64,000 nucleotides of DNA from an uncultured Poribacteria bacterium (GTDB taxonomy: Bacteria; Poribacteria; WGA-4E; WGA-3G), in assembly GCA_958296135.2 (NCBI GenBank), contig CATQHZ020000001.1, forward strand, positions 2,080,001 to 2,144,000. The letters are read 5' to 3'. Positions 38,476 through 42,088 of the stretch are shown here, one piece after another (position 1 is the stretch's first letter; every line of letters begins with the position of its first letter). The translations under genes and the position numbers were made by a program. The notes under the pieces are model-generated. The model saw only the letters and a list, made by a program, of their open reading frames with translations. It did no database searches and was not told where the DNA came from.

Positions 38476-39696
38476 ATGGCACTACGAAGTCGAATCTCGT
38501 CACGGTTCCTCGTCAATGAACTTGCCACCGCCATCTCGGAGGATTGGCGGACCTCGCGCAAGTTCATGCAATACCAACTGGCGAAAGAGAGTTTTAACCT
38601 GCGCCACCCGTTCGGCGCAAAGCACGGCAGAGGCGATGCATTGCAACTCGTCAGCCTCCGCATTACGGACATGTGTAACCTCCGCTGCCACTCCTGTGGG
38701 CAATGGGGTGACAACGGTTACCTCCTGGGGCAATCGCTCAAAGACCTGAAAGCGCGCGAAGTCCCCGTTGAAACCTATAAAAACCTCGTGGACCAGATCG
38801 TCGACCTCGGCTGGTCCCCCGTCTGGTATATCTGGGGCGGCGAACCGATGCTTTACCCCGGCCTCATCGAACTGATGCACTACATCAAGGATAAGGGGAT
38901 GCCGATTTCCCTCGTGAGTAACGCCACCAACATCGCTAAACGCGCGGACGATATTTTGGAAACCTGCAAAATTGTCTACCTCAGCGTTGACGGCCCAAAC
39001 GAGGAAATCCACAACACGCAGCGCCCCGGCGTTTCCGCGAAATATGACAACTTCAAAGATGTCAAAGCCGCCCTTGAAACGCTGAACGCGGCGAAGGAAC
39101 GCCAGCAACTCGCCTTCCCTTATATCATCCCGCTTAGCTGCGTAACGATGTATAACATTGATGTCGTGGTGGATCTCTACAAATTCACCAGTCAATACGC
39201 CGACGCACAGATTTTTTACCTGACATGGTGGATCGACTCGCAATCCGCGCAAGAACACACGGAGGACTTTGAGAACCGGTTCGGATTCAAACCACAGACG
39301 CACTACGGATGGATAGGCACCTGGAAAGATTTCGACCACGGCTTAATCCTGGATAAGTTTGCGGAAATGGAGAGCCTCTCCGAAAAGCAGAAACGGTGCC
39401 CGCCGGTGATGATGCCGAGGCTCAACACGCGCGGCGAAATCCAACGTTACTACACAGACCATCAGCAAACCTTCGGGTATAACCAGTGCGTCAGCATCTA
39501 TATGACGATGGAGATCGATAGTAACGGCGACGTGAGCCTCTGCCGCGATTACCACGACTACATCATCGGCAATATCAAAACCGATGCAGTCGCCGATATG
39601 TGGAATAACCAGAAAGCCATGAAGTTCCGCCAGTCCATCAGCGAAGACGGCCCCATGCCAGTCTGCCGCCGTTGCTGCGGGTTGATGGGATTTTAA
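38476..39696 (+). CDS. Radical SAM protein with C-terminal SPASM/twitch domain
   Basis: CNLRCHSC, WGGEP, SVDG, C-x-IDSNGDVSLC...GNI...CRRCC. Confidence 0.9.
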   Translation: MALRSRISSRFLVNELATAISEDWRTSRKFMQYQLAKESFNLRHPFGAKHGRGDALQLVSLRITDMCNLRCHSCGQWGDNGYLLGQSLKDLKAREVPVETYKNLVDQIVDLGWSPVWYIWGGEPMLYPGLIELMHYIKDKGMPISLVSNATNIAKRADDILETCKIVYLSVDGPNEEIHNTQRPGVSAKYDNFKDVKAALETLNAAKERQQLAFPYIIPLSCVTMYNIDVVVDLYKFTSQYADAQIFYLTWWIDSQSAQEHTEDFENRFGFKPQTHYGWIGTWKDFDHGLILDKFAEMESLSEKQKRCPPVMMPRLNTRGEIQRYYTDHQQTFGYNQCVSIYMTMEIDSNGDVSLCRDYHDYIIGNIKTDAVADMWNNQKAMKFRQSISEDGPMPVCRRCCGLMGF

Positions 39697-39787
39697 GCCC
39701 ATCATTCACCGTAGGGCTCGGTGCAGTGGCGAGAACCATAAGAGAATCTAGCAGAACCTACCCTAATCTAGCAGTGTGCATTTTGAC

Positions 39788-39816
39788 TTGCATTTCGCTT
39801 GGACTTATGGTATAAT
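39788..39816 (+). promoter_or_regulatory. Strong sigma70 promoter for tnpB
   Basis: TTGCAT-17 bp-TATAAT with TGn. Confidence 0.85.
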
Positions 39817-39819
39817 ATA

Positions 39820-39919
39820 GTTACCGTTGGGAGGTGAGACCTACTAAGCGCGGCATCCCGCCGTGTCTCTCACCTCCACCTTACCTTAGTAGGAAGGAAA
39901 AACAACGGCGAACGGTGAC
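39820..39919 (+). ncRNA. Structured pseudoknotted 5' leader of tnpB
   Basis: Stems 39830-39/39868-77 (10 bp), 39840-48/39885-93 (9 bp, crossing), 39849-54/39860-65, closing 39820-28/39911-19. Confidence 0.65.
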
Positions 39920-39923
39920 GCCT

Positions 39924-41168
39924 ATGGCATTGAAAACGCATTTAATGGCGTTGGACCCGAATAATAAGCAGGCGACGCTGCTTGCAAAGCACTGCGGCTA
40001 TGCCCGCGTGGCACGTAACCATGCGCTCTCGGAATTCAAGGCGGCACTCGATCGCGATGAATTCCTATCCGATATGGACTTGCGCAAAAGATTCAACGCC
40101 GTGAAAGATGAACGCTACCCGTGGTGTCGCGAGCTCAGTCAAAATGCATCGAAGAATGGGATTTGCACGCTCGGTGATGCAGTGAAACGCTGGGTCTCTA
40201 AACAGAACCGCTTCCCGCGCTATAAGCACCGATCTGGTAGGAGTTCCTACCAAGCTGACAATGGCGCAGGCACGGTGAAGGTGGAGAAAAAGCGTGTCAA
40301 CCTCCCGAAGATTGGCTGGGTTCGCCTGCGCGAGAAGTTGCGTTGGCGTGGCGAGATTCGGCGGTGTGTCGTCTCAAAACGTGCAGGCAGGTGGTTTCTA
40401 TCGGTTCTCGTGAAGGTGGTTTCCGACAGTGCGCCACGTGTGCGTTCTGAGGCGGGTCCTATGCGGGTAGTTGGTGTTGATGTAGGTATCAAAACCCTAG
40501 CCGTGACATCCGATGGTGTTGAGTTTGAAAACCCGAAGGCACTCTACCGCTATCTACGGAAGTTGCGGCGTGCGCAGCGTCAGCTCTCTCGTTCGGTTTA
40601 CCGAAGCAGAAACTGGTATCGGAAGCAGTTCCGCGTACAGAAGATTCACTATCGTATCTGCTGTCTGCGTGAGGATGCACATCATAAGGCAAGCACGGCG
40701 ATTGTGAAGGCGGCTGACGTTCTCGGCATCGAGAGTCTTCGTGTGGCGGGCTTGTTGAAAAACCGCCGTCTTGCAAAGGCGTTGAGCGATGCGTCATTGA
40801 GCGGTTTCTTGACGATGCTTCGGTATAAGGCAGAGGCACGTGGTGTTGAGATTATCGAAGCACCGTCGAACTTCCCATCATCGAAGACGTGCAGTGCTTG
40901 CGGGAATAAAAAGAAAAAGTTGTCCCTCTCGGAGCGGACATATCACTGCGAGGCATGTGGCGTGGTCATCGACCGCGACTTGAATGCAGCGTATAACTTA
41001 AGAACCCTCGCCGCTAGCTTGACGGAGAGGCAAAACGGCTGCGGAGCGACTATAAGCCCTCAGAGTAGGCACACCTCGTGTGTCTCGGAGGCACGCCGCG
41101 TTGAAACAGCAACTACGACAGATAAGAGGACAGGTCAGATTCGGATAGATTTGTCCAGACTATCATAA
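39924..41168 (+). CDS. tnpB: RNA-guided endonuclease TnpB (IS607-associated type)
   Basis: LDPNNKQATLLAKHCG.AR; RuvC triad GVDVG, IESL, DRDLNAA intact; Zn ribbon CSAC..CEAC. Confidence 0.93.
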   Translation: MALKTHLMALDPNNKQATLLAKHCGYARVARNHALSEFKAALDRDEFLSDMDLRKRFNAVKDERYPWCRELSQNASKNGICTLGDAVKRWVSKQNRFPRYKHRSGRSSYQADNGAGTVKVEKKRVNLPKIGWVRLREKLRWRGEIRRCVVSKRAGRWFLSVLVKVVSDSAPRVRSEAGPMRVVGVDVGIKTLAVTSDGVEFENPKALYRYLRKLRRAQRQLSRSVYRSRNWYRKQFRVQKIHYRICCLREDAHHKASTAIVKAADVLGIESLRVAGLLKNRRLAKALSDASLSGFLTMLRYKAEARGVEIIEAPSNFPSSKTCSACGNKKKKLSLSERTYHCEACGVVIDRDLNAAYNLRTLAASLTERQNGCGATISPQSRHTSCVSEARRVETATTTDKRTGQIRIDLSRLS

Positions 41169-41182
41169 GTTCTAGGGAGCGG
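41005..41182 (+). ncRNA. Predicted TnpB omegaRNA scaffold overlapping the tnpB 3' end
   Basis: Lies at the right end; stems covary with 42495-42650. Confidence 0.75.
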
Positions 41183-41224
41183 CGAGATATCCATATCCGC
41201 CTATCTAATCAGAAGGAAGAATTA

Positions 41225-42088
41225 ATGAAAATTGGATTACGTATTCCCGGCACAGCCCGTCAATTGCCGTTCGCCGATTTCTGTCGGTGGTGCGCCGATA
41301 ACGGGTTTGAAGCCGTTGACATTGGAGAAACCACGCCCGAAATTGTCAAAACCGCGCGAGATGCCGGGCTCGCCATCGGCACCGCAGATTTGCCGGGAGT
41401 GAGAGAGCTCCTCAGTCCCAAAAAGTCAAAACAGAAAGCAGGAGCTTCCGCTGCGAAAGCCGCTATCCAAGCCGCCGCAGACAACGACGTGCGCATCATG
41501 TTCTGCGTCTTTGTCCCGGAGGATGCCAGCCTCGGCCGCGCCAAAAACTTCGAGATTTGGAAGCAGACTCTCCCGCCGATCGCCGAGTTCGCCGCGGAGA
41601 ACGGTGTCACTATCGCCGTGGAGGGATGGCCGGGCCCTGCGCCTGCCTATCCGGCCCTCGGCTGCACACCGGAGATGTGGCGCGCGATGTTCGCCGAATG
41701 CGATTCCCCAGGGCTGGGACTCAACTACGATCCCTCGCACCTCGTCCGCATCGGGATTGACTACCTGCGCGCCCTGCACGAATTCGCGCCCTACGTCAAA
41801 CACGTCCACGGCAAGGACACCGTCTTTGACGAAGAAGCACTCTATCTGCACGGCAATCTCGGACCGAGTTTCGGCAACGCCCGCGGCTTCGGCGAAGACT
41901 GGTGGCGGTACACGATTCCCGGTGATGGCATTGTGGATTGGCTGAAAGTCGTGCAACGCTTGGAAGACGAAGGTTTTGACGGCATCGTCAGCGTTGAACT
42001 TGAAGATTATCGCTATTGGCGCACGTGGGAGTCAGAGTCTGATGGACTCCGCCGTTCCCGCGAATTCCTCGCGCAGTATGTGCGATAA
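41225..42088 (+). CDS. Sugar phosphate isomerase/epimerase (xylose-isomerase-like TIM barrel)
   Basis: IAVEG, NYDPSHL, HVHGKD, PGDG.VDW, SVELE. Confidence 0.9.
   Translation: MKIGLRIPGTARQLPFADFCRWCADNGFEAVDIGETTPEIVKTARDAGLAIGTADLPGVRELLSPKKSKQKAGASAAKAAIQAAADNDVRIMFCVFVPEDASLGRAKNFEIWKQTLPPIAEFAAENGVTIAVEGWPGPAPAYPALGCTPEMWRAMFAECDSPGLGLNYDPSHLVRIGIDYLRALHEFAPYVKHVHGKDTVFDEEALYLHGNLGPSFGNARGFGEDWWRYTIPGDGIVDWLKVVQRLEDEGFDGIVSVELEDYRYWRTWESESDGLRRSREFLAQYVR

Follow-up and report, generated by a model that had tools for sequence, protein, structure and literature searches.

What lies between promoter and start codon in a transposon-borne tnpB gene, and could it govern how much TnpB is made? 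The question is raised by positions 39820-39919 of a 64,000-nucleotide (nt) piece of DNA from an uncultured Poribacteria bacterium (NCBI assembly GCA_958296135.2, contig CATQHZ020000001.1, positions 2,080,001 to 2,144,000 of the forward strand), referred to here as the window. An initial annotation made from the letters had described a pseudoknotted 5′ leader at this place and proposed that it is a translational switch or a processing element that limits TnpB. Judged by sequence comparison, the leader is one of a family of structured 5′ RNAs, ∼95–110 nt long, that had not been described before. The family is widespread and supported by covariation, which makes the case far stronger than an observation in a single window. 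The reading to which we lean, with moderate confidence, is that of a cis-acting gate with two states, in which a shift in the register of the closing helix controls the initiation of translation. The features on which the argument depends are the following, with positions counted from the first letter of the window.

39712-41182, plus strand: tnpB-only insertion element (IS1341-like, a member of IS200/IS605) that carries the leader, delimited by alignment of the copies in its own genome
39783-39816, plus strand: promoter-like region, with −35 candidates TTGACT (39783-39788) and TTGCAT (39788-39793) and an extended −10 made of TG (39808-39809) and TATAAT (39811-39816)
39820-39829, plus strand: P0a, 5′ strand of the closing helix, found by complementarity; all 9 P0 pairs change on both sides among 92 distinct sequences
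39830-39839, plus strand: P1a; 93.9% of P1 cells in the alignment are paired, and 6 of 8 pairs have changes on both sides
39840-39848, plus strand: P2a, 5′ strand of the pseudoknot helix, directly after P1a, identified by complementarity, an energy test and pair counts
39849-39865, plus strand: P3, the hairpin CGCGGC-ATCCC-GCCGTG, with 6 base pairs (bp) and the loop ATCCC; all 6 pairs change on both sides
39868-39877, plus strand: P1b, complementary to P1a
39879-39882, plus strand: P4a (CCTT), moderate support
39885-39893, plus strand: P2b, 3′ strand of the pseudoknot helix, within the P4 loop after the linker AC, identified by complementarity, an energy test and pair counts
39894-39897, plus strand: P4b (AAGG), moderate support
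39903-39908, plus strand: proximal copy of the P0 3′ strand (CAACGG), whose pairing leaves 15 nt free before the ATG
39911-39919, plus strand: distal copy of the P0 3′ strand (AACGGTGAC), which holds GGTGA and ends 4 nt before the ATG
39924-41168, plus strand: tnpB, 414 amino acids (aa), with Pfam matches to OrfB_IS605 (1.6e-21), Cas12f1-like_TNB (6.3e-21) and HTH_OrfB_IS605 (5e-6)

All the pairings that had been named in the window were located again by a repeat search. P1 joins GGAGGTGAGA (39830-39839) to TCTCACCTCC (39868-39877) over 10 nt, and P2 joins CCTACTAAG (39840-39848) to CTTAGTAGG (39885-39893) over 9 nt, both with 100% complementarity. P2 crosses P1, and the helix order P1-P2-P3-P3′-P1′-P2′ had been read correctly. 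The closing helix P0, formed by GTTACCGTT (39820-39828) and AACGGTGAC (39911-39919), spans 9 nt and is 89% Watson-Crick, the ninth pair being T-G. As had been suspected, it has a second register, in which CCGTTG (39824-39829) pairs with CAACGG (39903-39908) over 6 bp. The nested part alone, without the crossing helix, folds at −48.7 kcal/mol; dinucleotide shuffles average −30.7 kcal/mol (standard deviation 3.7, z = −4.9), and none of 200 folds as well. The closing helix had also been said to cover an in-frame GTG. The GTG at 39915-39917 does share the frame of the ATG at 39924. In copies that carry GCTCTATG before the start it is out of frame, however, and so it is no conserved start. A coding reading of the leader itself, prompted by a mechanically called open reading frame (ORF) that runs through it from a GTG at 39834, was rejected: the lengths of 101–108 nt do not vary in threes, and the variation consists of compensatory pairs. 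P1a of the window happens to read as a perfect Shine-Dalgarno (SD) sequence (GGAGGTGA), and P1b includes the 7-nt CACCTCC, the anti-SD core of the 16S rRNA of the same genome; other leader variants do not share this.

The pairings are conserved in homologous leaders, where P0, P1, P2 and P3 all covary. Covariation was assessed in 95 matches (92 distinct) aligned to a covariance model. Taking P0, P1 and P3 together, 91.5% of cells are paired as against 61.3% in column shuffles, and 587 cells are changed on both sides as against 175. The covariation score is 0.728 compared with 0.194 after shuffling, none of 500 shuffles reaches 0.728, and sliding the partner strand of P0, P1 or P3 by 1–3 columns gives scores of at most 0.096. 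RNAalifold recovered the same three helices from this alignment, with compensatory change in 19 of the 19 predicted pairs. In a model in which P2 replaces P1, both-sided changes affect 7 of the 8 P2 pairs, and the paired fraction of cells is 86.1%. Because one class of sequences was misplaced by one column at P2 in this model (R3, comprising P0, P2 and P3), the helix was also tested without an alignment. The mean pairing energy of P2a is −9.5 kcal/mol with the 3′ region of the same leader and −3.9 kcal/mol with foreign 3′ regions, taken from leaders with a different P2a (6620 combinations); fewer than 5% of foreign partners pair as well for 77 of the 92 sequences, and 44 distinct P2a 8-mers are represented. 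Pairs of the G-U type outnumber A-C in P3 (41 versus 5), P1 (10 versus 1) and P0 (21 versus 11).

A further helix, P4, of 4–6 bp, flanks P2b and is probably real; examples from the family are UCCC/GGGA, UAACCU/AGGUUA, UACCC/GGGUA, ACCG/CGGU, CCCG/CGGG and CACCU/AGGUG. With P4 included, the strands follow one another as P0a, P1a, P2a, P3, P1b, P4a, a linker, P2b, P4b, an A-rich linker and P0b. In the resulting model, P0, P1 and P4 would make up a three-way junction, with P3 sitting on P1, and P2 would tie the P1/P3 junction to the P4 loop. Across the family, P1 has 6–10 bp, P2 has 7–9 bp and P3 has 4–7 bp in 85 of 92 sequences. The linker before P2b measures 1–3 nt (mostly AC or A) and the one after it 0–2 nt (G or nothing). 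In H-type pseudoknots, a linker of 1–3 nt can span the deep groove of a helix of 6–8 bp, so the geometry of the P2 pseudoknot looks feasible. The helix sequences vary freely, and conservation among unpaired bases is limited to a few positions: P1a ends in A in 91 of 92, the linker before P2b starts with an A, and the four bases after P4b are UAAA in 31 parsed instances. The P3 loops are variable, with a GNRA tetraloop in 25 of 92.

The family extends well beyond the window. A first covariance model, built from 21 own-genome copies and run over 61 genomes (its own and 60 related ones), gave 21 matches in its own genome and 12 in 8 of the 60 others. With a second, broader model built from 19 diverse sequences and a cut-off of E ≤ 0.01, 94 of 112 genomes of the bacterial family were matched, with 523 matches in total and up to 28 copies in one genome. 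An order-level sample gave matched genomes in 86 of 103 for family f1, 5 of 29 for f3, 0 of 11 for f2 and 0 of 7 for f4, and a phylum sample gave 80 of 99 for f1, 4 of 26 for f3 and 0 of the 25 genomes searched from the other seven families; these samples were scored with Infernal's stricter filters, and a zero denotes that the motif was not found among the genomes searched, rather than its absence. A scan of genome contigs with the TnpB protein returned one distant locus of 31% identity, at which there is no leader. Four viral contigs that share a conserved 17-mer were discarded as chance matches, none having the motif by covariance model, with or without filters.

No family in Rfam 15 accounts for the leader. 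Its models gave no match at E ≤ 10 in window 39600-41400 and, at E ≤ 1 over 20 diverse leader loci, a single match, to HgcC at the 3′ end of one tnpB and below threshold. The motif alone drew ToxI, HIV-1_SD, microRNA precursors and plant-virus pseudoknots, all at chance level and far below gathering scores. The best of these, ToxI at 39879-39893 (P4a through P2b), agrees at 14 of 15 positions and scores 15.7 bits against a gathering score of 50 (E = 0.93), and this ToxI-like 15-nt stretch is confined to the leader variant of the window. Thus the Rfam scan that had been proposed at the outset returned no family at gathering threshold. The HgcC match (28.8 bits against a gathering score of 50, E = 0.01) falls on the minus strand of locus L101 at 273-384; the tnpB concerned carries the leader, and its 3′ end is the place expected of an omega RNA. 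The omega RNA (reRNA) of TnpB is located at the 3′ end of tnpB, with which it overlaps, and adjoins the right end of the element with its guide. Like such omega RNAs and HgcC-type RNAs, the leader is a structured RNA of the same elements; unlike them, it lies 5′ of tnpB, ends at the start codon and occurs also without tnpB. No description of a structured tnpB 5′ leader was found in the literature searched, which included main-text passages of Weinberg et al. 2017 (PMC5737381); the supplementary list of 224 motifs of that paper could bear on novelty.

The leader is not peculiar to one TnpB. The motif starts ∼108 nt inward from the element end, and the left ∼218 nt of the element (end, promoter and leader) occur 21 times in the genome, 10 times ahead of the TnpB lineage of the window and 11 times ahead of a second lineage, with 46% protein identity between the two. 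At the second-lineage loci (L011-L013, L015-L020, L024 and L025), the left end, promoter and leader are 79–94% identical to window 39712-39929. Three leader variants occur among the own-genome copies, their P1 and P2 differing by compensating changes, and all three are common to both lineages. That the same left ends and leader variants are joined to such dissimilar proteins suggests that the 5′ module is exchanged modularly between TnpB lineages. At least 8 further tnpB-like loci in the genome (L014, L021-L023 and L026-L029) are not among the 21 model matches.

The genes behind the leader are more varied still. When 94 distinct instances were sorted by downstream ORF, a same-strand ORF of at least 60 aa was found to start between −14 and +45 from the motif end in 77. 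The largest group, 40 of 94, consists of TnpB-like ORFs. This group is the remainder class, of which 14 of 40 were scanned; all 14 match OrfB_IS605 and 13 of them also Cas12f1-like_TNB. Small membrane proteins of 113–145 aa follow in 24 instances, with a signal-peptide-like N terminus (MKTIL...), a coiled-coil middle and a hydrophobic C terminus. They form a multicopy family (for example L062:1600-1956, L064:1597-1971 and L042:1599-1994); none of three that were scanned has a Pfam match above cut-off, and a protein-atlas search with one gave no match of at least 0.9. GIY-YIG proteins (4 instances, three with NUMOD3 repeats), N6_N4 DNA methylases (4, by Pfam) and other ORFs (5, one being Mrr_cat_2 plus ResIII and four having no Pfam match) complete the set, and 17 of 94 lack an ORF of this size. 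Hence the notion of a TnpB-specific device had to be given up: the genes behind the leader include GIY-YIG/NUMOD3 endonucleases, N6_N4 methylases, an Mrr/ResIII enzyme and ∼24 small membrane proteins, and one leader variant serves both of the diverged TnpB lineages in the same genome. Transposon-end hairpins (CCCCA...TGGGG-type) are present upstream of the promoter at the tnpB loci, and none was seen at the other loci inspected. Because the latter lack them, the leader and its promoter are taken to be a cassette for several kinds of gene, many of which cut or modify DNA, and not part of the transposition machinery. Locus L109 carries two tandem copies of the motif, 10 nt apart (1501-1599 and 1609-1708), neither followed by an ORF of at least 60 aa.

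Where does the RNA begin? The promoter had been described as consensus. A promoter between the element end and the leader is plausible, but it is not a textbook one: TATAAT (39811-39816) stands at a noncanonical 22 nt from TTGACT (39783-39788), the promoter scan pairs TTGACT with TATGGT instead (17-nt spacing, 9 of 12 matches), and the 17-nt spacing between TTGCAT (39788-39793) and TATAAT was read by eye. Throughout the family the arrangement is regular. A −35/−10 pair that matches at least 8 of 12 positions is present in 82 of 92 members, and in 71 of these 82 the −10 ends 6–8 nt upstream of the P0a core. This position leads to the prediction that the RNA starts in the first bases of P0, at ∼39822-39824 in the window, with a margin of one or two bases.

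At the other end of the leader, the 3′ strand of P0 is present in two tandem copies, with a period of mostly 5–8 nt, and both copies track changes in P0a. Examples are ATCACGT with ACGTGAT-ACGTGAT, CCAGTTT with AAACTGG-AACTGG and, in the window, CCGTTG/GTTACCGTT with CAACGG-cg-AACGGTGAC. The alternative register that had been noticed in the window is therefore a feature of the whole family. When a tail site was counted only if it made 6 or more contiguous pairs with the P0a core, at most one of them G-U, two such sites were found in 51 of 92 leaders with their own P0a, in 1.3% of 6112 foreign combinations and in 0.8% of shuffled ones; at a threshold of at least 5 pairs, the values are 84 of 92, 26% and 21%. 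As duplexes, the proximal and distal registers have mean energies of −9.1 and −8.75 kcal/mol, and the gap is no more than 2 kcal/mol in 46 of 84 leaders.

The two copies differ in their distance from the start codon. An AUG could be placed in 66 of the 84 leaders with two registers; in 61 of these 66 it follows the end of the distal copy by 3–8 nt (overall −2 to 10), and in 65 it follows the end of the proximal copy by 9–16 nt. Only 14 of 75 leaders contain an SD-like 5-mer between −17 and −4, and it is always GGUGA or GUGAU. These appear to be words of the P0b strand itself (GGUGAC in the window, ACGUGAU elsewhere), recognised as such by word and not by recorded position. The 16S rRNA of the genome has a canonical CACCUCCUUU tail. 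In the window, the distal copy covers the only SD-like bases of the leader, GGTGA at 39914-39918, which are complementary to the 16S 3′ end and lie five bases from the ATG.

Sequence upstream of the predicted start would shift the balance between the registers. For a window RNA with its 5′ end at 39823, both registers come to −7.8 kcal/mol; with the full upstream strand, the distal register reaches −13.8 against −7.8 kcal/mol for the proximal one and is better by 6 kcal/mol. Ten extra upstream bases add −3.3 kcal/mol to the distal and −1.1 kcal/mol to the proximal register in the tnpB class (n = 34, many of them kin), and −0.35 and −0.22 kcal/mol, respectively, in the small-protein class (n = 20). 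Because the upstream bases favour the distal, closing register in the tnpB class, the data would fit a silencing of read-through transcripts of transposon-borne copies, which would be locked in the distal register; this fit depends on the predicted start.

The leader spans the distance from the predicted start to the AUG, P0 abuts the AUG, SD sequences are generally lacking and the two registers are equal in energy, and for these reasons a gate on translation that acts in cis is the reading that we prefer. That the distal register in the window covers the only SD-like bases and ends 4 nt before the ATG makes it the most natural one. The translational switch put forward in the initial annotation is thus the best current reading: the structured, pseudoknotted leader between the promoter and the tnpB start is real, while the switch as such is unproven. 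According to this model, the RNA would extend from the transcription start, give or take a few bases, to just short of the start codon. In the distal register, P0 would come within 2–8 nt of the AUG and the ribosome landing site would be paired. In the proximal register, the 9–16 nt before the AUG would be single-stranded, with the knotted core and the paired 5′ end staying folded. We infer that the two registers are used alternately and that translation is controlled in this way, such that the output of tnpB and of the other led genes would be kept low or conditional. Folding kinetics, the ribosome, a protein or a ligand are candidates for the selector of the register; a simple possibility is a kinetic one, a window that follows transcription, because the polymerase reaches the proximal copy before the distal one. 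Paired 5′ ends are known to shield mRNA from 5′-end-dependent decay, as in 5′ stabilisers, and the leader would probably also protect the 5′ end of its mRNA.

The nearest functional analogues would be translation-occluding hairpins of other transposons on the one hand and pseudoknotted operators and riboswitches on the other. The stem-loop in the 5′ untranslated region of IS200 tnpA and the fold-back inhibition of read-through transcripts in IS10 and IS50 are leaders that occlude translation. The leader shares with them that the ribosome-binding region of a transposon mRNA is paired by a structure in cis. As in a translational operator that occludes this region, the pairing helix, here with the distal P0 copy, lies beside the start codon. 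The leaders of IS200, IS10 and IS50 are simple hairpins that belong to one element each, whereas the present one combines a junction, a pseudoknot and a duplicated strand, is found family-wide and stands also before non-transposon genes.

Several points weigh against a gate. A search of sequencing runs found no RNA run that contains the stretch, so transcription start, existence of the RNA and switching are all predicted. The shuffle statistics overstate independence, because covariance models shaped the alignments that were counted and copies or close kin fill many of their rows. P4, which fitted no consistent alignment columns and was tested by script in the 78 of 92 sequences with a P2 of at least 6 bp, reaches at least 4 bp in 65 of these 78. 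Owing to the base composition of its strands, rich in C on one side and in G on the other, 48% of foreign combinations do so too, and P4 is therefore taken as probable and not as proven. There is no G-U excess in P2 (11 versus 17 A-C) or in P4 (4 versus 9). The register energies are duplex approximations that ignore the pseudoknot and tertiary contacts. Comparison of the register balance with gene class gave no difference, so the balance does not visibly tune expression level. No ORF of at least 60 aa is found near 17 of the 94 instances, and the duplicated strand could serve some other purpose.

A purely structural role, in which the knotted fold with its paired 5′ end blocks 5′-end-dependent decay and forms part of an expression cassette with no switching, is rather unlikely. 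It would account well for the predicted start at the first P0a bases in 71 of 82 members and for the movement of the leader, together with its promoter, ahead of unrelated genes. However, it leaves unexplained both the presence of two covarying P0 3′ strands and the position of the distal copy against the AUG.

An unlikely alternative is that the core is an aptamer for a small molecule or for a protein of the host or the mobile element, whose binding picks the P0 register, as in a riboswitch or a protein-binding sensor. The leader does have the conserved complex fold expected of a riboswitch, a multistem junction with a pseudoknot that has been kept through many compensatory changes. Its near-equal closing registers resemble an expression platform, and the downstream genes are enriched for DNA-acting enzymes. 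Pseudoknotted regulators of translation include SAM-II and preQ1-II, which are of the H-type, THF-I, with a junction and a loop pseudoknot, and the operators of the ribosomal proteins S4 and S15. The leader resembles them in having a compact pseudoknot beside the start codon, an A-rich strand after the pseudoknot stem and a closing helix that gates the ribosome-binding site. Unlike them, it has no similarity to Rfam models, few conserved unpaired bases and many copies with heterogeneous genes. Indeed, the very few conserved unpaired bases and freely varying helix sequences speak against a sensor, as do the up to 28 copies per genome, the heterogeneous gene set that includes transposon genes, and the finding of the motif in only two families of one phylum among those searched. 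Autoregulation by TnpB is disfavoured by leader variants that fail to follow the TnpB lineages.

A wider proposal that builds on the gate is conceivable yet doubtful: the leader would represent a regulatory RNA of a new class, a bistable gate that works by register shift. Its core would sense a ligand, a protein or the ribosome, and through it the lineage would co-ordinate its selfish and defence genes directed at DNA (TnpB, homing endonucleases, methylases and a restriction enzyme) with the family of small membrane proteins.

Processing of the mRNA 5′ end by a self-cleaving ribozyme, HDV-like (after hepatitis delta virus) or of a new class, is very unlikely. The leader shares with HDV-like ribozymes the crossing of P1 and P2 in the order P1-P2-P3-P3′-P1′-P2′, both helices covarying here, and its place at the 5′ end of a mobile-element RNA, which is also where HDV-like ribozymes are located in some retrotransposon RNAs. 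These ribozymes have a short P3, a conserved L3 that forms P1.1 with J1/4, and a P4 between P1′ and P2′. In the leader, by contrast, P1b leads directly into P4a, and P2b sits within the P4 loop instead of following a P4 hairpin. P1.1, a conserved L3 and a conserved catalytic C are missing, and there is an extra closing helix, P0. The P3 loops, variable and GNRA in 25 of 92, together with the 4–7 bp of P3 in 85 of 92, are the reason for which a conserved L3 able to form P1.1 is regarded as lacking. Rfam ribozyme families were matched neither at E ≤ 10 (window and motif alone) nor at E ≤ 1 (20 loci). The HDV-like or processing element of the initial annotation is thus not supported, in view of the P4 placement, the P3 loops and the Rfam ribozyme models. 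Processing is disfavoured further by the promoter directly upstream: with the predicted start at the first bases of the motif, nothing would lie upstream to be cleaved off.

A DNA-level signal, that is, a single-stranded DNA structure of the transposon left end for TnpA or an attC-like recombination site, is most improbable, for although the window copy lies within the left part of an IS200/IS605-type element and the genome has two matches to Y1_Tnp (PF01797), the motif also stands before non-transposon genes without left-end hairpins, always faces the downstream ORF and follows a promoter, has more G-U than A-C in P3, P1 and P0, and contains a pseudoknot with several covarying helices, which is not a known feature of such sites. 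The recognition hairpin of IS200/IS605 TnpA was likewise considered and rejected, as the motif lies ∼108 nt inside the element and occurs before GIY-YIG, methylase and membrane-protein genes without end hairpins.

TnpB elements are the ancestors of Cas12 and are used as genome editors, and to our knowledge little is known on how TnpB expression is held in check. The use of the leader before nucleases, methylases and a restriction enzyme hints at a shared layer of control for potentially harmful DNA-acting genes in an understudied phylum, and the doubling of the closing strand suggests a simple and portable means of switching translation between two states. Being compact and well defined, with abundant compensatory variation, the fold is an easy target for structure and reporter work.

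The element itself is present in its own genome in 9 other full-length copies, which align with query 13-1483 of window 39700-41230 at 88–95% identity, 3 of the 9 as two pieces, and whose flanks are unrelated between copies. The leader had been said to lie where tnpA normally lies; this is loosely true, the element having tnpB only. The two Y1_Tnp (PF01797) matches in the genome, at G000:C1:3734478-3734807 and 4791155-4791397 (L136 and L137), point to proteins that might mobilise tnpB-only elements in trans. Three copies of the element (L003, L007 and L010) share the same insertion of ∼89 nt with terminal inverted repeats, a miniature palindromic element, between bases that match window ∼39770 and ∼39771, in the left end and upstream of the promoter. 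Finally, several leader-bearing tnpB genes are truncated while the leader is intact, as at L004:2219-2767, L005:1702-2502 and several loci of genome G005 (L088, L092 and L096), with examples of 183, 267 and 33–118 aa.

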